From assembly GCF_004010195.1 (NCBI RefSeq), contig NC_057710.1:148177548-148241547 (forward strand): 64,000 nucleotides of DNA, written 5' to 3'. The stretch's first letter is position 1, and every line of letters begins with the position of its first letter. This DNA is from Chiloscyllium plagiosum (lineage: Eukaryota). This document shows, piece by piece, positions 8,400-61,945 of this stretch. The notes under the pieces are model-generated. The model had not been told where the DNA came from, did no database searches, and worked only from the letters and a program-made list of their open reading frames with translations. The position numbers were made by a program, and so were the translations under genes.

Positions 8400-9880
8400 C
8401 AAACTAGAGACAAATGGAAGATATAGACTGTAGGGAAATAGATGGTGACATCTTGCAAAATGCCCAGATTACAGAGGAGGAAGTGCTGGATGTCTTGAAA
8501 TGGTTAAAGATGGATAACTCCCCAGGACCTGGTCAGGTGTACCTGAGAACTCTGTAGGAAGTTAGAGAAGTGATTGCTGGGCCGCTTGCTGAGATATTTG
8601 TATCATCGATAGTCACAGGTGAGGTGCCGGAAGACTGGAGGTTGGCAAACGTAGTGCCACTGTTTAAGAAGGGCGGTAAAGACAAGCCAGGGAACTATAG
8701 ACTGGTGAGCCTGACCTCAGTGGTGGGCAAGTTGTTGGAGGGAATCCTGAGGGACCGGATGTACATGTATTTGGAGAAGCGAGGACAGATTCGGGATAGT
8801 CAACATAGTTTTGTACGTAGGAAATCATGTCTCACAAACTTGATTGAGTTTTTTGAAGAAGTAACAAAGAAGATTGATGAGGGCAGAGCAGTAGATGTGA
8901 TCTATATGGACTTCAGTAAGGCGTTCGACAAGGTGACTGATTAGCAAGGTTAGATCTCATGGAATACAGGGAGAACTAGCAAATTGGATACAGAACTGGC
9001 TCAAAGGTAGAAGACAGAGGGTGGTGGTGGAGGATTGTTTTTCAGACTGGAGGCCTGTGACCAGTGGAGTGCCACAAGGATCNNNNNNNNNNNNNNNNNN
9101 NNNNNNNNNNNNNNNNNNNNNNNNNNNNNNNNNNNNNNNNNNNNNNNNNNNNNNNNNNNNNNNNNNNNNNNNNNNNNNNNNNNNNNNNNNNNNNNNNNNN
9201 NNNNNNNNNNNNNNNNNNNNNNNNNNNNNNNNNNNNNNNNNNNNNNNNNNNNNNNNNNNNNNNNNNNNNNNNNNNNNNNNNNNNNNNNNNNNNNNNNNNN
9301 NNNNNNNNNNNNNNNNNNNNNNNNNNNNNNNNNNNNNNNNNNNNNNNNNNNNNNNNNNNNNNNNNNNNNNNNNNNNNNNNNNNNNNNNNNNNNNNNNNNN
9401 NNNNNNNNNNNNNNNNNNNNNNNNNNNNNNNNNNNNNNNNNNNNNNNNNNNNNNNNNNNNNNNNNNNNNNNNNNNNNNNNNNNNNNNNNNNNNNNNNNNN
9501 NNNNNNNNNNNNNNNNNNNNNNNNNNNNNNNNNNNNNNNNNNNNNNNNNNNNNNNNNNNNNNNNNNNNNNNNNNNNTTTTCCCTGGGGTCGGGGAGTCCA
9601 GAACTAGAGGGCATAGGTTTAGGGTGAGAGGGGAAAGATATAAAAGAGACCTAAGGGGCAACTTTTTCACATAGAAGGTGGTACGTGTATGGAATGAGCT
9701 GCCAGAGGTGGAGGCTGGTACAACTGCAACATTTAAGAGGCATTTGGATGGGTATATGAATAGGAAGGGTTTGGAGGGATATGGGTCGGGTGCTGGCAGG
9801 TGGGACTAGATTGGGTTGGGATATCTGGTCAGGTTGGACCGAAGGGTCTGTTTCCATGCTGTACATCTCTATGACTCTGT
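8400..9880 (+). mobile_element. Relatively young CR1/HER1-type LINE, RT region and 3' UTR, interrupted by an N gap
   Basis: PEDWRLANVVPLFKKG..PGNYRLVSLTSVVGKLLE, DFSKAFDKV, SGVPQG. Tail ctctatgactct. Confidence 0.95.
9083..9576. other. Assembly gap (N run)
   Basis: Run of N inside a CR1 RT region. Confidence 1.
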
Positions 9881-14546: not shown

Positions 14547-14869
14547 CTTCCTAAAGTATGGTGACCAGAACTGCACAATACTTGAAATGTGGCCTAACTG
14601 AAGTTTTATTCAGCTGCTAATATTTACGCTCAATGCCCCAAGGCAAGGACCTTTACCACCTTATCTTTGTGTGTTGTCACTTTCAGGGAGCTATGTATAT
14701 CAATGCTCCCAAAGGTCTTGTGTGATGTTGTGGCAGTTTTTTGCTCATATAACAATCAGGATGCTCAAAGTAATTATCTTCCCTTAACAAAGTTTTGTAT
14801 CAACTTGTTATTATAAATTCCTGTCTAAGTTTAATATTATGTAAATTTTCAAACCAGTAGTTACTATAA

Positions 14870-14998
14870 GGAGAAAGTGAGGACTGCAGATGCTGGAGAT
14901 CAGAGTCGAGAGTGTGGTGCTGGGAAAGCACAGCAGGTCAGGCAGCATCTGAGGAGCAGGAGAATCGAAGTTTCGGGTATAAGCCCCTCATCAGGAAT
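14870..14998 (-). mobile_element. PLE-terminus family A monomer with hammerhead core
   Basis: Minus strand reads ccUGAUGAg-gggc-uuau-accc-GAAA-cuuc. Degenerate 14-bp TSD tagttactataagg / tagttattgtaagg. Confidence 0.8.
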
Positions 14999-17769
14999 AT
15001 AGTTATTGTAAGGCAGCAAAGAGAGTGTCAAGCTATGTCACCTGCGGTCATACCATGAGCCTTCAATCAGGGCAAGGAATGTCAAGGTCTCCATTCTGGT
15101 TAACTTTATTGTTATAGAGTCATTTTAGATTGCAGGATGAAATGTTAGCAACATCAGTTGAAAACGATCCTATGAATGTCTATCTTGTTTACTATCACAG
15201 GCTGTACTTCACGCAAGTATGAACCAGATAAAAGTCAAGATTCATTCTTCCTATAATAAAGGCAAAATACTGTGGATGCTAGAAATTAAATTTGATTTTA
15301 AAACAAAGAGCTCGAAAAACTCAAGGGGTCTTGTATTATCTGTGGAGATATAAATGAAGTCAATGTCCCATATTACTCTTCAGTAAAAGAAAATTACTCC
15401 CAAAAATGATGCAGAATGAAGTCAAATGTTAATCTGTTTCTGTCTCCACAATTGCTGCCAGGATATTACTCCAGTACATTGTTTTTATTCCATTCATCCT
15501 GTGCTAGTTTTACGTACCTTTAATTCCAATCAGCCTCTGAATTCACAAGATTTTGTTGTGATGACAAAAATATATCTCCTCTCTAGATGTAGCTGATGAA
15601 TCCTGTCAGAAATCGGGGTACAAGACAGAATTGGCCTGCAAGAGGCATGCAGAAAATTGAAATATTTAAGCCTAGACTATCTGAGAGGGATTTTGCAGTG
15701 CACCTTTTTCAGTGGACTAGATTTTTCACAACCGAGACAGATAACTCAAGTCAGAATAATTCCCAACTCAGCGATTTAACGGCCCCTGTTAGACCCAATT
15801 CTTTGTTCTGAAGTGAAGCAAGTAGAATGGAGTCAGGCTAGTCAACCCCAGAAGCAGATCCTGGGCAACTATATGGGTGGGTTAGTGCCAAGGTGGGCTG
15901 GATGGAAGGTCCATTTTGGTTCCCTGGGATTTCATTCCAGTTGTTTCATAAGGTGTCAGGCCTTTTAGCCCTCATTTCTCAACATCAACCATGGCTCCAA
16001 CCATGGCTCCTCCATACCAGTTGGAAAGAGACTGCTGAACTTAAGTTTCATTCCTGTATGAGGCATGCTTCACTCGCGTTATTAGCCTTGCTGAGGACTG
16101 AACCATTTTGCTGTGAGCCAGGTAACATAACCTAGTTAGTGGTGTGCCACCAACAAGGGAACTGGAAGACTGAGTAGTGGTGGAGTAAGCACAGTGACAT
16201 TGTGAGAGCAGAAGCTATTACCATGGGGCTCAAGTCACTCTCCTAGAACTGTGCCTCACCATTCCTATGGCTCTGTGTGAGTTCAGATACCTGCATCTGG
16301 GTTCTCTCCCCACATTTTTAAAAGTCTGCAGAGTAATTCTAATTCCATGCAAATCCTATTAAATGTTTTTAGATTTGTGAGCATGTGCTTCCTGCTATTT
16401 AATTGCTATACTGAGAGACCAGATCTCACCAACATCTGGCCCTTTGGAACTGGAGGAATAGGAAACAAAGAAATACTGACATATATGTAATGCCACATAA
16501 ATACAGTGGCTACAAGAACAGGTCAGAGGTTAGGAATACTATATGGAGTAACTGTCCTCCTGACTCTTCAGAGCCTGCCCCCAAAATCTGCACATGTGCA
16601 ATCCATCTGCCTCTATGATCATTCTGAAATTTGCATTTGCTTAAAATAATGTGTCAAACTCATTCATCGTCGAAGTCAGAAGGGAATAACAGCACAATAT
16701 TTGAAGAAACCCTCCATACAGGTCTTCTCCAGTATTGCCACATGACAGGGCTACAATTTAAACTCTGCCTCTGACAACTAGCACAGCATGCTCCAATGAA
16801 AAGGACGCTCAGGTAATTTCGGCCTCCTCCGGTTACTTCATTTTATCTCATGTTGCATGATCACCTGCCTGAAGGAAGCAACTGTAAACCCTAGTGACAG
16901 CCTTGTGAGCTGTTTTGAGAATATGACTTTAATGACGGGATATTTCATGTGTATAATCTGGGACATGAGGTTTGCTGTGGGCCTGAGCTCGAGGTGGAGA
17001 TTATCTAAATTGGTGGAGAAGGAAGAAGTGTGTTGTAGCTTTGGGGGTGTGAAGAGAGGGAGAAGTATGAATGTTGTAATTAGGGAAGGCTGCAGGTGTT
17101 GCACATATGAGAAGAGAATAGTTGAAAGACGAGATTCTTGGCATTACAATACTGATGAGGTCATTAAACTGTTTCTAGCATTGCAGCCATAAGCTCCTGG
17201 CATTGACCTCCTCAATGACCTGTTCCCACTGAGAGTAGGAGTGCTGCCTGGGGGTGTATCTGAATGCTGTCCTGTCTGGAACAGGACCTCCATCACATCT
17301 GAGTAACTGGATGTCCTCTCTGAATCTCCTGCAGCTATTTTTTAACTTATAAGTAAGTTAAAAAACCTGTAAGTTTCTCAACAACTGTAGTGCCCAAACC
17401 TTTTAAGTGGTGTCAGATAGACTTGATTTCCTGCCTCCTCAAAAATATGTATCCAGTAAGCAGAGCTGGCACACGATATCGAACAATGAACACTCATTTC
17501 AAGTAATGTTTTCCAATGGCACCTGCAGGAGGCACAGTTATATTTCCAGGCTCATATTTTGTAAATAATTGTCAGTTCTAATTTTGCTTCTTGGAACTAA
17601 TAAGAACAAATTTTTGATATGACATTTAAGACAAAATACAGATTCTTTAAATGCCTAAAATAGGGAACCATGGTGATATAGTTTTCCATTGTGTCTTCCC
17701 AAGGCTTTCACATAATAGCGGTGATCATTTCTCCTTGTGTTAATTGGCATAATCTTTATTAATTATATA

Positions 17770-23389: not shown

Positions 23390-23557
23390 TTGAAAAGTGT
23401 AGTGCTGGAAAAGCACAGCAGGCCAGGCAGGAATCCTGAAATCCAGGCAGAAATGTCGATTCTCCTGCTCCTCGGATGCTGCCTGGCCTGCTGCGCTTTT
23501 CCAGCACTGCACTTTTCAACTCTGGTCTCCAGCATCTGCAGTCCTCACTTTCTCCTC
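23390..23557. mobile_element. PLE-terminus family A inverted dimer, centre deleted
   Basis: Arms gtgctggaaaagcacagcaggccaggcag / ctgcctggcctgctgcgcttttccagcac. 16-bp TSD CAAGACTGACTTGTTG (23374-23389 / 23558-23573). Confidence 0.85.
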
Positions 23558-24600: not shown

Positions 24601-25322
24601 CTTTTTATTCATTCATGGGATGTTGGCATTACTAGTCTGGCCGATATTTCTTGCCATCCCCAATTGTCCAGAGGGCAGTTAAAAGTCAACCACATTGCTG
24701 TGGGTCTGTTTATGTGTAGGTCATATGTAGGTCAGACCAGGTAAGGATGGCAGATTTCCTTCCATAAAAAACATTAGTGAACCTGATGGGTTTTTCCTGA
24801 CAATTGACAATGGTTCGAGAGTGTGGTGCTGGAAAAGCACAGCAGGTCAGGCAGCATCCGAGGAGCAGGACAATTGACTTTTCGGGCATAAGCCCTTCAT
24901 CAGGAATGACCCTCATTCCTAATGAAGGGCTTATGCCCGAAAAGTTGACTCTCCTGCTCCTCGGATGCTGCCTGACTTGCTGTGCTTGTCCAGCACCACA
25001 CTTTTTGACATTGACATGAAACCTTTGTCAATTATGAGAAAGTGAGGAACTGCAGATGCTGGAGATCAGAGTCAAGAATATGGTGCTTGTAAAGCATAGC
25101 TGGTCAGGTTGCATCCAAGGAGCAGGAGAATCGATGTTTCGGGCATAAGCTCTTCATCAGGAATGGTTTCATAGTCATCATTAGACTCTTATTTCTCGAT
25201 TATTATTGAATTTAAATTCCACCATCTGCCTTGGTGGGATTCGAATGCAGGTTACAAGAACATTAGCTGGGTCTCTGGATTAATAGTCTAGCAATAATAC
25301 TACTATGCTATCATCTACCATC
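24601..25322 (-). mobile_element. Second tRNA-derived SINE family, interrupted by a three-unit family A array (24815-25164)
   Basis: Minus-strand head (tagactattaatccagagaccc...ttcgaatcccacc) and tail catcccatgaatgaataa. Another copy lies at 63655-63960. Confidence 0.7.
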
Positions 25323-27696: not shown

Positions 27697-27740
27697 GGAG
27701 AAAGTGAGGACTGTAGATGCTGGAGATCAGAGTCGAGAGT
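27697..27740 (-). mobile_element. 44-bp 3'-terminal fragment of PLE-terminus family A
   Basis: ggagaaagtgaggactgtagatgctggagatcagagtcgagagt with a 9-bp TSD TACTGTGTA (27688-27696 / 27741-27749). Confidence 0.8.
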
Positions 27741-27827
27741 TACTGTGTACTTGTGCCACTTATAACATGTTACAAGTGTTATAGGAGGCAGACAAAAAAG
27801 TGGGGTTGAGACCACAACCAAATCATG

Positions 27828-32739: not shown

Positions 32740-34678
32740 CATTCATACATTCTAATACATCCAACACCTCCTCTACTGTGATATGGACTGTCCCCACCAT
32801 ATCACCACTAACTTCCCCAGGTTTGCAAGTCTTCATGTCCTTCTCCACGGTAAACACAGAGAAGAAATATTCATTGAGGACCTCGCCCATCTCCTGCGAT
32901 TCCACACACACATATCCGTTTTGGACCTTGATGGGTCCTATTCTCTCTCTCTAGTTATTCTTTTTCTTTCAATATACTTAAAGAACTTCTTTGGATTCAC
33001 TCTAATATCCTCAGCCAAGGCTATCTCATGCCACCTTCGGATTTCCGTCTGCAGTAAACTCCTGTATACCCTGTATACCTCCAGGGATTCCCTTGATCCC
33101 AGCTGCCTGTACCTTAGCCATCCCACCTTTTTTCTGGTCAAAGCCTCAATATCTCTTATCGTCCAGGGTTCCCTATTTCTGCCAACCTTGCCCCTCACCT
33201 TCAGAGGAACATATATACCTTAAAGTCTAGATATCCCACTTTTAAAGGTCTCTCACTTGCCAGAGGTCCCTTTGCCTGCAGTCAATGCTGCGAGCTCATC
33301 AAAATTCGCCTTGTCCCAATTTAGAACTTGAACCTGTGGACCAGTTTTGTCCCTCTCCATAACTGTTTTAAAATTACTGGGGCCAAAGTGCTCCCCCATT
33401 GTCACCTCAGTCATCTGTCTGCCCTATTTCCCAAGAGTAGGTTAAGTTTTGAGGGCAGGGTGTAGACGTAGTCTCTCTGGATTTCAGTAAGGCTTTTGAT
33501 AAGGTTCCACATGTTAGGCTGCTCTGGGAGGTTAGATTGCATGGATTCCACACGGAGCTGACAAATTGGATGCACATTGGCTTGATGGTAGGAAGAAGAG
33601 GGTAATAGTGGAAGGATGCTTGTTGGACTGGAGGCCTGTGACTAGTGGAGTGTCTCAGGGGTCACTGTTGGACACATTGCTGTTTGTTATCTATGTCAGT
33701 GATCTGGATGAAAAGGTACAAGGCATGATTAGCAAATTGCTGAAAATGTGTTGCTGGAAAAGCGCAGCAGGTCAGGCAGCATCCAAGGAACAGGAGAATC
33801 GACATTTCGGGCATAAGCCCTTCTTCAGGATAGTAAGTAAGTTGCAGATGACACTAACATAGATAGTATCGTGGACAGTGAGGAAGGTTATCAGAAATTG
33901 CAGCAGGACCTTGATCAGCTGGGGAAGTGGGCCAAGAAATGGCAAATGGAGTTTAATATAGATAAGTGTGAGGTCTTACATTTTGGAAAATCAAATCAAG
34001 CTAGGAGCTTCATGGTAAATGATAGGACCTTAAGAAGTGTCATGGAACAGAGGGACCTTGGAGTCCAGGTGCATGGTTCTCTGAAAGTGGAGTCCCAGCT
34101 AGACAGGGCAGTGAAGAAGGCTTTTGGCACATTGGCCTTCATCAGTCAGGGCACTGAGTATAGAAGTTGGGAAGTTATGCTGCTGTTGTACAGGACGTTG
34201 GTGAGGCTGCACTTGGAGTATTGTGTTCAGTTTTGGTCACCTTGTTATCGGAAGGACGTTATTAAACTGGAAAGAGTACAGAAGAAATTTACAGGGATGT
34301 TGCCAGCACTCAAGGGTCAGAATTATAAGGAGTTGTTGGACAAGCTAGGAATTTTTTTCTTTAGAGTGTAGGAGGCTGACGGGGGGAATCTTATAGAAGT
34401 GTATAAGATTATGAGAGGCATGGTTAGGGTGAATGCAGTCAGTTTTTTCGCAGGGTTGGGGAATCAAGAGCTAGAGGGCAACAGTTTAACACCTATGGAA
34501 TGAGCTGAGGTGGGGACATTAACAATATTCAAAAGCATTTGGACAAATACATGGATAGGAAAGATTTCGAAGGATATGGGCCAAGCGCAGGAAATGGGAT
34601 TAACATTGATGGATATTTTGGTTGGCATGGACCAGTTTAGGCCGAAAGGCCTGTCTCTATGCTGTAGGACTCTATGAC
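32740..34678. mobile_element. CR1 LINE with 5' inversion (32740-33450 minus; 33452-34678 plus)
   Basis: The minus part encodes upstream ORF2 (EPWTIRDIEAL, EMGEVLNEYFFSVFT). The plus part encodes RT to the 3' end (DFSKAFDKVPH, LQQDLDQLGKWA). Confidence 0.85.
33738..33830 (-). mobile_element. PLE-terminus family A fragment with hammerhead core, inside the CR1 RT
   Basis: Minus strand reads ccUGAAGAa-gggc-uuau-gccc-GAAA-uguc. Confidence 0.82.
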
Positions 34679-40907: not shown

Positions 40908-41563
40908 TAAAAATCACACAACGCCAGGTTACAGTCCAACAGGTTTAGTTGGAAGCACTAACCTTCAGAGCGACGCTCCTTCATCAGGTGGTTGTGGAGC
41001 ATACAATTGTAAGACACAGAATTTATTGCAAAAGTTTACAGTGTGATGTAATTGAAATTATACATTGAACAATACCTTGATTGTTTGTTGAGTCTGTTAG
41101 AATACCATGATAGTTTCACTTCTTTCATATGTAAATCAAAAAACTTTTTTAAAAAGTTACATTCTCAGGTTAACTGTAACAATTGGTGTCAGCGCAGACA
41201 AGATGTTGAAGGTGTTAGCCCCCTGTGTTCTCTGTCTGTGCCATTATGTTTAGACTGATTCTAATCTAAAAAGTGAGTTAACAGAGTCATATATAGATCC
41301 ATGCATTTTTTGAGCAAAGTACAATGTAACTCTGCAAACGTATATGTATATGTGTGCATGTGGTTTTGTGCGTGTGTCTGTCTGTCTGTCCGGGTGGGGG
41401 GTTGTGAGTGTGAGAGAGAGTGTATATCATGTTATTCTAACAGATGAAAGGCTCAACAAACAATCAGGGCATTTTTCAATGTATAATTTCAGTTACATCA
41501 CACTGTAAACTTTTGCTATAAATTCTGTGTCTTACAATTGTGTCCTTCACAACCACCTGATGA
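40908..41563. mobile_element. PLE-terminus family B with inverted repeat, hammerhead-like core and (TG)/(GA)-rich tract
   Basis: 89-bp inverted arms at 40981-41069 / 41475-41563. Minus strand reads cacCUGAUGAa-ggagc-guc-gcucu-GAAG-guuagug. The right arm ends at cctgatga, where the gap begins. Confidence 0.75.
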
Positions 41564-42063
41564 NNNNNNNNNNNNNNNNNNNNNNNNNNNNNNNNNNNNN
41601 NNNNNNNNNNNNNNNNNNNNNNNNNNNNNNNNNNNNNNNNNNNNNNNNNNNNNNNNNNNNNNNNNNNNNNNNNNNNNNNNNNNNNNNNNNNNNNNNNNNN
41701 NNNNNNNNNNNNNNNNNNNNNNNNNNNNNNNNNNNNNNNNNNNNNNNNNNNNNNNNNNNNNNNNNNNNNNNNNNNNNNNNNNNNNNNNNNNNNNNNNNNN
41801 NNNNNNNNNNNNNNNNNNNNNNNNNNNNNNNNNNNNNNNNNNNNNNNNNNNNNNNNNNNNNNNNNNNNNNNNNNNNNNNNNNNNNNNNNNNNNNNNNNNN
41901 NNNNNNNNNNNNNNNNNNNNNNNNNNNNNNNNNNNNNNNNNNNNNNNNNNNNNNNNNNNNNNNNNNNNNNNNNNNNNNNNNNNNNNNNNNNNNNNNNNNN
42001 NNNNNNNNNNNNNNNNNNNNNNNNNNNNNNNNNNNNNNNNNNNNNNNNNNNNNNNNNNNNNNN
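41564..42063. other. Assembly gap (500 N)
   Basis: Run of N. Confidence 1.
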
Positions 42064-43640
42064 GAATATGACATAAAATCAAGGGAAACAGATATATGTT
42101 GTCGATATGCTGTGGCGAATAACATTCCCTTTGAAAAATTAATAGCTAAGACAGAATGTGAAATCTTGCAGATGCAAAGAAAAGCAAAAGCTCACCATGC
42201 TCTGGAACTTATCAACTCTGCATCTTCCTCAAATCAAGTAAACAGTGCAATATAATGCAACTGTCCAAATGCTGCAGAAACTAATAATGAAAAGATGGCC
42301 TGAAATTATCAACGACACACTTGTTGCGATAAGAGAGTATTGGCATCGAGAAACAAAACGATAGCCCAAGATGGCATCTCGTACAAAAGAAATAGTCATT
42401 ATCCCTGAGGACAGGTAATGAAAAAAGAGATGTCAAAACATGTACATGTAAGTCGTCAGTGAATTGATTCTAAACTGAGGAAGAGAGAAAAAAAAAGTGT
42501 TCATCTGGACAAACGTGAGCAATGAGATTCAAGACCACACCAGCAAATGTCATACTTGTCAAGCTACAGAGCTGCTTATAATACATCACATCTGAAATAG
42601 ACCATGGATCATTGAAATATATCTCTTCACGTTTGCAGCAACTGGTTATCTTGTCACCATCAACTATTCAGATGACTGGGTCTTAGTTCAGCTGACATTA
42701 CTGACTGACTGACTACCAATAAGTCTGTAGAATGCCTGAAGACATACTTGGTCATTAACTGTATTCCACATGTTGTGGTGAGTGACAATGGCCATCCATT
42801 GTGAAGAATTCAGCCACTTCACAAAGGATTGGGAAATTCACTGCCAGGCATCATCTCCACACTATCCCCAGTCAGAAGGAAAGGTTGAGGCAGCTGTGAA
42901 GATCGGGAAAGGCAGCATAAAGAAACAGAGAAAATCCAGCAGAGACTTTTATTGAGTGGAAAAACACTACTGAAGGCATGGAAAAATATCCAGTCCAAAG
43001 ATTAATGCCACACAGCATCTTTCACTAGCCACCAAACTACAAAAGCCAGAAGTTATACTGGGCACGAGTGACAAAGTCAAGATGAAATTTTAGAAAGTCA
43101 AATTTCACTTCAAAGAACTGCCATGTCATTACCAGATGGAGGTGGGGACTGCAGATGCTGGAGATTAGAGTCAAGATTAGAGTGATGCTGGAAAAGCACA
43201 GCAGGTCAGGCAGCTTCCGAGGAGCGGGAAAATCGATGTTTCGGGCAAAAGCCTTTCGTCAGGTGTCGTTCCTGATGAAGGGCTTTTGCCCAAAACTTTA
43301 ATTTTCTTGTTCCTCGGAAGCTGCCTGACCTGTTGTGCTTTTCCAGCACCACTCTAATGTCATTACCAGAGCTGAGCAGCGGAGTGGCAGTCAAAGTATG
43401 AACATACAGTGCTCTCAACAAAATTAACACAGTAGCAACATGGAATCGGTGTGGAACAATTATCAGCTTCATGATGCATGAGAACCTGAACAACCAGATA
43501 CATCATGACAGTGGGGATATCTACGTACAGAGATGCTATACCTTCATTACAGTCAGCAGATCAAAAAGAATTCTCATCACCTGCACAGAGTACAGATTAA
43601 CATCCAGTCATAGAGTTCAGCTGTTCCTGAGCAACAGGAA
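42064..43640 (+). mobile_element. Decayed Ty3/Gypsy LTR-retrotransposon pol (integrase) remnant
   Basis: Frameshifted motifs YLVTINYSDDW (about 42647), VVVSDNGHP (about 42772) and SSPHYPQSEGKVEAAVKI (about 42850) match the Gypsy integrase core. Confidence 0.75.
43137..43356. mobile_element. PLE-terminus family A inverted dimer inserted in the Gypsy remnant
   Basis: Two opposed hammerhead-like cores. 14-bp TSD ATGTCATTACCAGA (43123-43136 / 43357-43370). Confidence 0.88.
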
Positions 43641-48319: not shown

Positions 48320-49330
48320 GAGAAAACAAAGACCGACATTGCTGGAAAAAAATCAGCATGGTCTGGCAGCATCTGTGGGGAGAAATCAGAGTTAACGTTT
48401 CAGGTCCACTGACTCTTCAGAACTTTTTTTTCCTGAGTGCAGGTAAAAAGCAAAAGGGACAGGTCTGGGGTGGGAGGGGAGAGAGAGTCGGAGGTGGCTG
48501 AAGGAGTCTATGGGACGGGTGGAGGTCTCTTGTGCGGAGAAATGGGCACGGAGGTGAAGGCGTTGGAAGAAGGGTTCAAAGTCTTGTCATGCCCGAAATT
48601 CTTTAAGATGGGGATACTGAGGTGTAAAACCTTTGCTGAGTACAGAACGTTCAGTATCAGAGAGCAGGAGGCCTGAAGAGATAGTAAACGGGAGGTGGGA
48701 TTGGGAGAGGGGGTGGAATTAGAGGAAAGGGAAGGTTCCAGAGGGGTGTGAGTATCTCTGAGTTGTTACATCTTGTATTCTTTAATGCCTGAAAAGAAAA
48801 GAAAGAGTCTCTTGTTAGAACGTCGAATGTGCCAGGGCAGCTCTGTGTCAGTGTGAGGTGGTGGTGATGAAGAGAGAATGAAAATGTACATATGGCAACG
48901 CATGGCACTGCGTGTGGATCTCAGGATGCGGCAAGAACAGCTGTCTGGGGAACATCGAACGTCGTGGAGATACCCTGATCCTGGGTGGATTCAAAACACT
49001 CAGGATGAAACTTGAGTTGGAATCCACGTGGGGTGAGTTTAAGCTGTAGGAAGTCACTGGGGAATGTGAAATAACTGTGGGAATGGGTTTTGGATAGATA
49101 CCTTGTCAAACATTAGGAGTGGCAGCAAAATTAACAGTGGTGAACAAGAAAAATGATTGGAACAGAAATCCTGTCAGGGAAAGGAACAGAACTTCTTCAA
49201 AGTGGGCATACCTGGAAGAGATGTGGCAGTGAGCTAAACACAAAACTAAAGAACTGCGGATGCTGGAAATCAGGAACAGAAATTGCTGGAAAACCTCAGC
49301 AGGTCTGGCAGCATCAATGGAGAGAAGTCA
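48320..49330 (-). mobile_element. PLE family D termini (48320-48423, 49237-49330) around a probable Penelope ORF N-terminal remnant (48600-49110)
   Basis: Minus strand reads guuCUGAAGA-guc-agug-gac-cuGAAA-cguu-aac at 48391-48423. Minus peptides FLQLKLTPRGFQLKFHPECFE and CSCRILRSTRSAMR resemble, from memory, the C.....IP.GF N-terminal region of vertebrate PLE ORFs. Confidence 0.55.
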
Positions 49331-49698
49331 GGCGTATGAAAACATTGGGAGAACAAGGATTACAAATGACAGTTAAACAGATTCGGCTGCATTGTAATCA
49401 GGCACAGCATATTTCACTCCCTTCTACAGAACTTCCATTCTGTTTCAACAGCTTTACTGCAGCTGATGGTCCAGCCCACCAGATTACCACCAAGACAATG
49501 AAAACAAACACTCAGTGCCTTAACATAGCAAAATATGAGGGGTACCACAAAATGAGAGAGAACTGGCAGACCAGAGGGGTGAATAAAGAGCAACAGCAAA
49601 GCAGCACCGAGTGAGATTATAGCAAGACCAGCGAGGAGGAAAGCTGAAAATGTGTTGCTGGAAAAGTGCAGCAGGTCAGGCAGCATCCAAGGAACAGG

Positions 49699-49738
49699 AG
49701 AATCGACGTTTCGGGCATGAGCCCTTCTTCAGGAATTC
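49699..49738 (-). ncRNA. Minimal type-I hammerhead ribozyme motif (antisense)
   Basis: Minus strand reads cCUGAAGAa-GGGC-UCAU-GCCC-GAAA-CGUC^gauu. Confidence 0.7.
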
Positions 49739-49772
49739 CTGAAGAAGGGCTGATGCCCGAAACGTCGATTCT
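49733..49772 (+). ncRNA. Minimal type-I hammerhead ribozyme motif (sense to HHIP)
   Basis: CUGAAGA (49739-49745), extra A, stem II GGGC-UGAU-GCCC, GAAA (49759-49762), CGUC. Predicted cleavage after 49766. Confidence 0.7.
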
Positions 49773-50056
49773 CCTGCTCCTTGGATGCTGCCTGACCTGC
49801 TGTGCTTTTCCAGCAACACATTTTCAGCTCTGATCTCCAGCATCTGCAGCCCTCACTTTCTCCAGCGAGGAGGAAAGAAGATCAGCAGCAGAGCAGCACC
49901 AAGAGTCGGAACACTGTAAGACTAGCAGAGAGAATAAGAGAGTGGTGACAACAGCACTGGAAGTACTGCCAGTCAGGTGGGGAGGACAAAAGGATGAATG
50001 TTTCTAGTTTCCAAAATGAAAACCATGTTTGAAAGAGAATCAAACTGTGACATTAT

Positions 50057-50380
50057 GGGCGGCACGGTGGCACAGTGGTTAGCACTGCTGCCTCACAGCG
50101 CCAGAGACCCGGGTTCAATTCCCGCCTCAGGCGACTGACTGTGTGGAGTTTGCACGTTCTCCCCGTGTCTGCGTGGATTTCCTCCGGATGCTCCGGTTTC
50201 CTCCCACAGTCCAAAGGTGTGCAGGTCAGGTGAATTGGCCATGCTAAATTGCCCGTAGTGTTAGGTAAGGGGTAAATATAGGGATATGGGTGGGTTACGC
50301 TTCGGCGGGTCGGTGTGGACTTGTTGGGCCGAAGGGCCTGTTTCCACACTGTAATGTAATCTAATCTAATCTAATCTAAT
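50057..50380 (+). mobile_element. Full-length young HE1-type V-SINE
   Basis: gggcggcacggtggcacagtggttagc (A box) and gggttcaattcc (B box), V-core, CR1-like 3' end and (ctaat)n tail. CpGs are retained. Confidence 0.95.
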
Positions 50381-57070: not shown

Positions 57071-57556
57071 TGATGTTGCCCCTACTATCAGAGGGGTGAA
57101 TATCCCAAGTTGAGACAATATCCTTTTGTCTTTTGTGCACTTTGGAAGTTGCATTTATTCTTCATTTCAGTCAGGTAAGGTCACTATTTGCTATCCAATT
57201 CTCAGCTTCTCTGAATTACAATCATTATTGGAATATCAACCTCAAGAAGACTCAAGTTGTTTACTAAATCATCCCAGGGCAAGTTCCAGCTCATCCCTCC
57301 ATTTTGATCAATGGAGAAATCCCCCCAAAACTTCATGTAGCTGAAGACCCACCTCTTATCCAAGGCTGACATTGACAGAGATATTCAACACCTCATCCAA
57401 TCTACAAGCACCACCTAAAAATGAGAGTCTTCAATGATTGTGACATCATGTCATTACATACAAGGCAGTCATCCTCGCGACTCTTCTGTATGTCTGCAAA
57501 ACTTAGAGTATGTATAGACACCACTTCAAGGCTCCTGAGAAGTACCATCAACTCTG

Positions 57557-58176
57557 GTTGTAAGTTTGCTCGCTGAGCTGGAAGGTTTGTTCTCAGATGT
57601 TTCGTCACCATGCTAGGTAACATCATCAGTGAGCCTCCATTGAAGCGGTGGTGTTCTGTCCCGCTTTCTGATAATATGTCTTGGTCTGTTGTGGTGGGTG
57701 ACATCACTTCCGGTTCTATTTCTGAGAGGTTGGTAAATGGGGTCCAAATCAATGTGTTTCTTAATGGAGTTCCGGTTTGCATGCCAGACCTCCAGGAATT
57801 CCCATGTGTGCGTTGTTGAGCCTGTCCCAGGATGGATGTATTATCCCAGTCGAACTGGTGTCCATCTTCGTCTGTGTGTATGGATACCAGTGATAGTTGG
57901 TCATGTCTTTTGGTGGCTAGTTGATTCTCATGTATCCTGGTGGCTAGGTTCCTGCCCGTCTGTCCAATGTAAAGTTTGTTGCAGACACACCACAACAGAC
58001 CACAACACAAATAGAAAGCAGGACAGAACACCATCGCTTCAACGGAGGCTCACTGATGATGTTACCTAACATGGTGACAAAACGTCTGAGAACAAACCTT
58101 CCAGCTCAGCGAGCAAACTTACATCCAGAACTTCAACCTGAACTACTAACCTTCACAAAAATCACAAAAACTGTCT
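57557..58176 (-). mobile_element. Penelope-like element (family C): GIY-YIG endonuclease C-terminus with inverted pseudo-LTRs
   Basis: LYIGQTGRNLATRIHEN...HQFDWDNTSIL, then (frameshifted) EFLEVWH...HIDLDPIYQPL. 110-bp inverted arms at 57560-57669 / 58013-58122. Possible TSD ACTCTG. Confidence 0.88.
57592..57633 (-). ncRNA. Minimal type-I hammerhead ribozyme motif in a PLE pseudo-LTR
   Basis: CUCA-CUGAUGA-U-GUUACC-UAGCAU-GGUGAC-GAAA-CAUC^UGAG. Stem I CUCA/UGAG and stem II both pair. Confidence 0.75.
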
Positions 58177-61769: not shown

Positions 61770-61945
61770 CAAGAACAGGAGGTGTTGGAGAAATGAGGCA
61801 GGTCTGGCAGCATCTGCAGAGAGAAAAACAGAGTTACGTTTCGAGTCCCGTGACCCTTCATCAGAACAGTTCTGTCCACAACTGCTGTAAGAACTGTTGA
61901 GTTTCTCCAGCACTTTCTGTTTTTGTTTCAGTTCTGCAGTTTGCT
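61770..61945. mobile_element. PLE-terminus family D inverted dimer, plus-arm core deleted
   Basis: Minus strand reads guuCUGAUGAa-ggguc-acgg-gacuc-GAAA-cgua. Arms ggtgttggagaaa / tttctccagcac. Confidence 0.7.

Follow-up and report, generated by a model that had tools for sequence, protein, structure and literature searches.

Where Penelope-like elements (PLEs) insert, they are described as leaving a 5'-truncated copy in inverted orientation beside the 5' end, together with an optional tail of 30–40 bp that is often found at one end only (PMC8557442; PMC3846280). The minimal hammerhead ribozymes (min-HHRs) of PLEs are marked by an extra residue separating position 9 from 10.1, a G10.1–C11.1 pair, a loop 3 that reads as a palindrome and a short helix I, and dispersed single minimal hammerheads as well as close opposite-strand pairs have previously been reported (PMC4209133). 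Penelope transcripts begin inside the upstream terminal repeat (pLTR), from an internal promoter (PMC2377424), and initiator-like motifs are noted in rotifer pLTRs (PMC3846280). Experiments in vitro on a PLE from an anole identified the tail as the stretch between two internal start sites of the reverse transcriptase (RT); this PLE extends both target strands, uses uncleaved RNA and requires RNA beyond the start sites, and hammerhead cleavage is not required for its insertion (PMC11167929). For palindromes of this type, self-priming is the proposal given in PMC3846280, and the formation of inverted PLE pairs and the role of the hammerhead are treated there and in PMC8557442 and PMC7761336 as open questions. 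Non-LTR retrozymes, the other system closely related to the present one, are described as head-to-tail repeats of 150–450 bp with circular RNA (PMC7229834; 10.64898/2026.07.22.740005), and the canonical type-I hammerhead of retrozymes has a 6-bp helix I and a loop–loop contact. In sharks, an expansion of PLEs in whale shark introns is reported in two sources (10.1101/443036; PMC8455134); a further source for the comparison is PMC6155905. PMC4209133 mentions no shark in its main text or in two of its supplementary files, and no description of the present shark family as ribozyme-bearing was found in the literature searched, as distinct from the repeat libraries Repbase and Dfam.

In this study, a family of hammerhead-bearing units of about 130 nt was analyzed in a window of the Chiloscyllium plagiosum genome (the whole stretch of 64,000 nucleotides, to which all positions refer). 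On all of the structural features tested, the unit corresponds to the insertion unit of an endonuclease-bearing PLE. It resembles the insertion units of endonuclease-bearing PLEs (Penelope/Poseidon, Neptune and Nematis) in its head-to-head inverted ends, its tail on one arm and its two 3' ends about 35 nt apart, and also in the varied length of its target-site duplications (TSDs) and in the presence of a hammerhead in the terminal repeat, and it may share their partial tandems (PMC3846280; PMC8557442; PMC11167929). In contrast to those elements, nearly all of the shark inserts consist of the last 95–130 nt and begin in a narrow 5' zone just before the hammerhead. The original prediction had linked the family to PLEs, a link supported by the one-arm tail, the head-to-head pairs, the varied TSDs and the min-HHR. 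We are highly confident that the unit is the pLTR end piece of a PLE, and this very abundant dispersed repeat is likely to be a dead terminal-repeat stub of an endonuclease-bearing PLE. The kind is already known: dispersed min-HHRs of truncated PLEs, with inverted ends and tails, occur in many animals.

The insert at 49644 consists of a 96-nt left arm on the - strand joined head to head with a 130-nt right arm on the + strand. It is enclosed by a 16-bp TSD (49628–49643 and 49862–49877, both on the + strand) whose two copies match exactly, with none of 500 random positions scoring as high. The left arm (49644–49737, -) is tailless, with C3 of its core at 49732 and a cut site after 49705 on the - strand. 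The right arm (49734–49863, +) is a complete unit that overlaps the left arm at the palindrome centre and ends in the optional 34-nt tail (49830–49863, +) that lies between the two 3' ends. On the + strand, core pattern and folding place a minimal type-I hammerhead motif at 49735–49770, comprising CUGAAGA (49739–49745), a bulged A, helix II (49747–49758), GAAA (49759–49762), the CG loop and U-C (49765–49766). Both arms retain CUGAAGA, the 4-bp helix II and GAAACGUC, together with GAAA, the CG loop and GUC, and they differ at only 4 of 96 positions, so that the earlier description of a near-perfect palindrome with an intact core on each strand holds as a 96-bp pair with both cores kept. The + strand cut predicted after the GUC at 49766 would likewise, from the sequence, fall after C49766.

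A function for these two cores was nevertheless rejected on the basis of predicted masking. Folding predictions give the full hairpin an advantage in stability of about 60 kcal/mol over every hammerhead-containing fold (z of -22), and a transcript of either strand of the palindrome encounters the antisense arm first; the ribozyme in this copy is thus predicted to be locked in the 96-bp hairpin. Taken together with the neutral-type decay of the core described below, these properties indicate that the two intact cores most likely reflect youth and not function. Matches to Rfam microRNA models at 49676–49795 reflect nothing more than the hairpin.

Alignment of the window copies verified that each of the seven loci named previously carries the unit, in whole or in part. 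In total they have 12 arms, a count reached because the 24815 locus is a composite that extends to 25164 and includes a third unit at 25036–25164. The loose pattern CTGANGA-N4-30-GAAA occurs 23 times in the window compared with 7.1 ± 3.0 times in shuffled sequence, and at least 23 occurrences were obtained in none of 100 shuffles. A head-to-head inverted arrangement is found at four of the seven loci. Apart from 49644, these are the pair at 23390–23557, both arms of which begin inside the unit and lack an intact core and only the right arm of which bears a tail; the pair at 43137–43357, with a tail on the left arm only and a 5-nt spacer; and the composite at 24816–25164, formed by a tailless head-to-head pair (24816–25008), a short inverted target copy and the tailed third unit, which lies on the - strand. 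None of these three inserts is assigned a single strand. The remaining loci, all on the - strand, are a tailed monomer with mutated helix II and ACGU palindrome (14870–14999), a tailless monomer with an intact core that lies within a LINE-like RT remnant (33739–33830) and a copy made up of the tail and about 8 nt only (27697–27741). Beside the 14870 monomer, an old and highly decayed copy of a sister repeat can be made out by eye at 15250–15480.

The TSDs were assessed by comparison with 500 random window positions, which confirmed that six of the seven loci have duplications of 7–16 bp. In addition to that at 49644, the TSDs at 23390 (16 bp, exact; 0 of 500 random positions), 43137 (14 bp, exact; 1 of 500) and 27697 (12 bp, one mismatch; 1 of 500) are clearly above chance, that at 14870 is fair (14 bp, two mismatches; 4 of 500) and that at 24815–25164 is weak (7 bp; 13 of 500). 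The exception is 33738, where the TSD is no better than chance (92 of 500). The 3' ends abut the TSD directly, with no A-tail. The centres of the pairs differ at each of the four loci, consisting of a 2-nt overlap, short fillers or a scar, and private variants are common to both arms within a pair (one at 24815, four at 43137 and two at 23390). In the 24815 composite, the stretch between the second and third units (25004–25035) appears by eye to be an inverted copy, of about 30 nt, of the element's own target site, which suggests template switching onto the cut flank.

The strongest sign of PLE origin is the tail: the unit is identified as a PLE end chiefly because its two 3' ends and one-arm tail match the published PLE tail. 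Six of the 12 arms stop near unit position 86–96 and the other six carry a further tail of about 34 nt. The expectation that complete units share one 3' end was therefore correct for the six arms that reach the tail end, but a second end is used about 35 nt earlier by the other six. The tail is on exactly one arm in three of the four head-to-head pairs, the fourth (24815) being tailless on both; the pair arms that end at the no-tail site are the left arms at 49644 and 23390 and both arms at 24815. Four public sequencing runs, including two of DNA (one of them X1) and the raw polyA single-cell RNA run X21, were placed on the 14870 monomer only. From the DNA runs, 121,126 and 104,312 contigs were placed, and in both of them all of the contig depth above background lies within 14848–15007. 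The commonest loose ends among those listed are at 14869/14870 (2273 + 1315 contigs in X1), 14911/14913 (671 + 415) and 14998 (771). Contig joints connect 14869 with 14901–14905, which places the 3' ends 33–35 nt apart genome-wide; among the joints listed, they go back 33–35 and 81 nt to the tail end. The public reads imply thousands of unit loci in two species, the contig counts not being copy numbers. The 14870 insertion itself is likely to be shared with another organism (organism B), in which two contigs pass from the flanks into the unit for 21 and 29 letters, against the 31 letters required by the rule applied. At the 14869/14870 loose ends, a faint consensus past the tail and a joint filler suggest a parental tail ending in a pyrimidine run and TAG, in the manner of a 3' splice site. 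A pyrimidine tract and AG likewise follow in the sister family at 49254.

The 5' ends are clustered, not evenly spread. Relative to C3, nine of the 12 arms start at -4, -6, -8, -5, -2, -1, -3, -4 and -4, and three start inside the unit; six of the eight separate events fall within an 8-nt zone, the chance of which is about 1e-5 under a uniform model. The near-constant boundary at -2 to -5 that had been proposed was thus right as to clustering, whereas the starts actually spread from -1 to -8 and three of the 12 lie downstream of the 5' edge of the core. The cluster is real but staggered over 8 nt. In the window, 8 nt upstream of the core is the furthest that any of the nine arms reaches. In the reads of each of the four runs, the same four letters open the consensus of the loose letters past 14998, in agreement with the longest window arm (24915R), which indicates that a minority of copies continue upstream into a longer parent; agreement with this upstream consensus is 0.33–0.37 in contigs and 0.52 in raw reads, the values of the DNA runs (0.33–0.34) being equal to those of unrelated flanks. 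Because starts at -4 and longer copies are counted together at 14998, the number of loose ends there is no proof of a mode at -4. Read depth at the 5' side of the core is 24% of the peak, and many copies may begin inside the unit, although clipping and sister families inflate this fall in depth. Copies starting at -4 have no extra G. The start zone contains TCATTCC, which we take to be initiator-like: it fits the initiator consensuses YYANWYY, which occurs at 1.3% of window positions, and TCAKTY, at 0.2%, the range for initiator consensuses overall being 0.2–1.7% of window positions. This match was noticed post hoc.

The reading of the motif as a minimal hammerhead is supported by the presence in both 49644 arms of the PLE min-HHR marks listed above; their short helix I consists of C-G, U-A, a U.U mismatch and A-U (2 bp, a mismatch and 1 bp). 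The motif resembles the minimal hammerheads of metazoan PLEs, and the Drosophila virilis type in particular, in its CUGANGA...GAAA..UH core, the extra nucleotide before helix II, G10.1–C11.1, the 2-nt palindromic loop 3 and the very short helix I; it differs in that helix II has 4 bp, compared with 6–8 bp in the described Drosophila and schistosome motifs (PMC4209133). By analogy, the min-HHR of the unit would be expected to cut only as a dimer. Of the nine core-bearing arms, only four have the core, a perfect helix II, GAAA and UH all intact. The ACGU palindrome, for which folding predicts a 4-bp duplex of -3.1 kcal/mol, is kept with GUC in only two of the nine, the two 49644 arms, and has elsewhere been lost mostly through CpG-type changes. 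Genome-wide, G12 is changed in 16–19% of the contig depth, the same as its CpG partner, and the core decays at CpG like neighbouring DNA, as neutral decay would give. The covariation of helix II that had been listed as a check is absent within the family: no compensatory change was seen among the nine arms or in the 40 of 90 contig rows inspected. Other hammerhead families in the window retain helix II with different sequences. The second check proposed, a comparison with Rfam by Infernal, was also negative, as no match was found across the window at the gathering score and none of the hammerhead models matched the 49644 locus or single arms up to an E value of 10.

From the RNA run X21, 3568 of 12,955,460 records were placed on the unit, on both strands, and 98% of these continue into unrelated sequence. 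No pile-up of RNA starts or ends was seen in X21, a polyA single-cell library of the type in which cut ends and small circles show poorly. Since 98% of the reads run into unrelated sequence, on both strands and with no end pile-up, the unit RNA is read-through of embedded copies.

In the window, no sequence coding for an RT or a GIY-YIG endonuclease was found joined to the unit by Pfam or motif scans, by which weak PLE remnants may be missed. Pfam was run on 18 of the 30 frames of at least 110 aa, the other 12, which overlap N gaps, being left out, and returned two LINE-like RT pieces, neither tied to the unit. These RVT_1 remnants lie at 8558–8941 and 33841–34368, and the 33738 copy sits in one of them; the window has two assembly gaps of about 500 N each (9083–9576 and 41564–42063). 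No partial head-to-tail tandem of the unit, of the kind that forms a pLTR, is present in the window. Collections of viral genomes, prokaryote genomes and metagenomes (two patterns for the last) contained no match to exact patterns from the unit. The open 40-aa frame of the unit matched only an exonised stretch of a Chiloscyllium plagiosum gene model, with 82% identity across 70% of the query, which supports a shark origin. In protein P0003, a C. plagiosum gene model, about 26 residues of the unit frame lie in a predicted PDZ-domain protein, perhaps as a prediction artefact.

Indirect support for the PLE parentage of the unit is provided by another hammerhead family at 57553–58129, a PLE-like 5'-truncated copy that is attached to a GIY-YIG C-terminal remnant and has the same layout as the unit. 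Its core at 57629 (-) has a 6-bp helix II, and its inverted arm of 117–147 nt, with a core at 58053 (+), is the only one with a tail-like extension. The GIY-YIG remnant (57762–57992) reaches only E 0.15 in Pfam and shares 80% identity with an exonised stretch of a Hemiscyllium gene model; it has an Atlas score of 0.94 to eukaryotic clusters (12% GIY-YIG) and no PDB or phage match. Furthermore, a sister family that shares the 3' half of the unit has two ends around a body of about 800 nt at 48330–49345 (-), which resembles a PLE in partial tandem that has lost internal sequence. A terminal piece (49322–49254), a frameshifted ORF-like body, a decayed core at 48420 and a second end can be recognized in it. 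The ORF-like body (48430–49250), for which no protein relative was found in the searches, may resemble a PLE N-terminus. Hammerhead-like cores also occur at 61864 (-), with a further inverted piece at 61883–61912, and at 40987 (-); their helix II sequences are different and still pair. A SINE-like head, presumably HE1, begins near 50058.

A mechanism that would account for these inserts, and to which as a whole we give slightly better than an even chance, combines two RT starts, run-off at the 5' end of the RNA, twin priming and dead stubs. We infer all of its enzymatic steps, what is observed here being the anatomy, the two 3' ends, the 5' zone, the pairs that share variants, the CpG decay and the read-through. 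The GIY-YIG endonuclease of the parent would nick the target, and its RT would start at either of two internal sites, giving an end with or without the tail. The template would be an RNA that has not been cleaved and starts just ahead of the hammerhead, at the initiator-like TCATTCC, and the RT would run off its 5' end after about 95 or 130 nt. Both nicked strands would act as primers, and the two stubs would be joined 5' to 5' via a short overlap or filler, producing palindromes with a one-arm tail and a TSD. Twin priming would explain why arms end at either 3' end, why the pair centres differ and why private variants are shared; the pair that is tailless on both arms is a counterpoint. Stubs that lack the sequence beyond the tail needed by the protein would have no independent spread, and solo stubs should be dead because the anole enzyme requires RNA beyond its start sites. 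More tentatively, it is possible that the PLE mass-produces such 'strong-stop' stubs, twin-primed head to head, from its 5' terminal-repeat copy. The most serious competing explanation, which we consider unlikely, is that the inserts are ordinary 5'-truncated copies of the 3' pLTR, with the RT pausing or folding back past the hammerhead and the palindromes arising by self-priming. The stagger of the starts from -1 to -8, the three arms that begin inside the unit, the copies that extend further upstream and the published view of PLE copies as highly 5'-truncated, with inverted-junction palindromes read as self-priming (PMC8557442; PMC3846280), all agree with it, and private variants common to both arms fit copying of one arm from the other. 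However, a pause at the folded ribozyme should leave ends on its 3' side and not past its 5' side, and it is not obvious why fold-back would halt a second arm at the no-tail site, where 49644L, 23390L and both 24815 arms end. The earlier suggestion of an RT stop at the ribozyme fits only loosely, as reverse transcription has covered the entire ribozyme before the copies end.

Propagation of the 130-nt unit by itself, as a non-autonomous SINE- or retrozyme-like element with an internal promoter or circles and a PLE enzyme acting in trans, had been the main option of the original prediction and appears improbable. Non-LTR retrozymes are similar in being non-coding, in their type-I hammerhead and PLE pLTR origin and in their dispersed monomers; one chondrichthyan genome is reported to contain them, in a source (10.64898/2026.07.22.740005) whose sequences might include relatives, and non-autonomous PLE derivatives exist according to the same source and PMC8557442. 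The very high copy number (more than 100,000 contigs per DNA run) and the absence from the window of arms passing more than 8 nt upstream would also suit an independent unit. However, the shark loci are monomers or head-to-head pairs with one ribozyme per strand beside its own complement; head-to-tail hammerhead repeats are absent at all seven loci and no full-unit repeat was seen among 15 of 139 joints. The loss of G12 at the rate of its CpG partner, the lack of compensatory change in helix II, the X21 reads that enter unrelated sequence on both strands, the minority of copies that continue upstream and the need of the anole PLE for RNA that solo stubs lack (PMC11167929) all argue against it. 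A non-LTR retrozyme was rejected on the absence of head-to-tail units (0 of 7 loci), the short helix I and the lack of an Rfam hammerhead match, and a SINE on the lack of a simple-repeat 3' end and of any tRNA, 7SL or 5S Rfam match on single units up to an E value of 10. The MITE-like reading, in which the palindromes are DNA transposons with an incidental hammerhead motif, is very improbable. Short hairpin elements with inverted ends and TSDs are present, in its favour, but TSD length ranges over 7–16 bp, TSDs also flank monomers and a tail-only copy in which inverted ends are lacking, and each of the four pairs has a different centre; it was rejected on the monomers with TSDs and the TSD lengths. 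Least credible of all is that hammerhead self-cleavage gives the template its 5' end and sets the boundary. The boundary does lie near the ribozyme, but cleavage predicts starts after GUC, 28 nt downstream of C3, where none of the 12 arms begins, and it was rejected for this reason. Because the start zone is about 30 nt upstream of the cut site, that is, upstream of the whole ribozyme, cleavage is not the source of the 5' starts; in addition, the cut site is not among the loose ends listed, there is no RNA end pile-up and the anole PLE inserts without cleavage (PMC11167929).

The residual value of the family is mechanistic, as it offers thousands of copies with two sharp 3' ends and a narrow 5' zone, and counting copies in one assembly could separate run-off, RT pausing, twin priming and self-priming. 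No description of a genomic record of PLE transcription starts, or of the twin-priming route, was found in the literature searched. If the proposed mechanism of run-off and twin priming is true, the shark copies would constitute such a record of both the transcription start of a PLE and its twin-priming integration route, and the RNA of the parent may begin at the start point that the copies have in common, just ahead of the ribozyme. For the host, copies of the unit supply genes with long hairpins and occasional exonised pieces.
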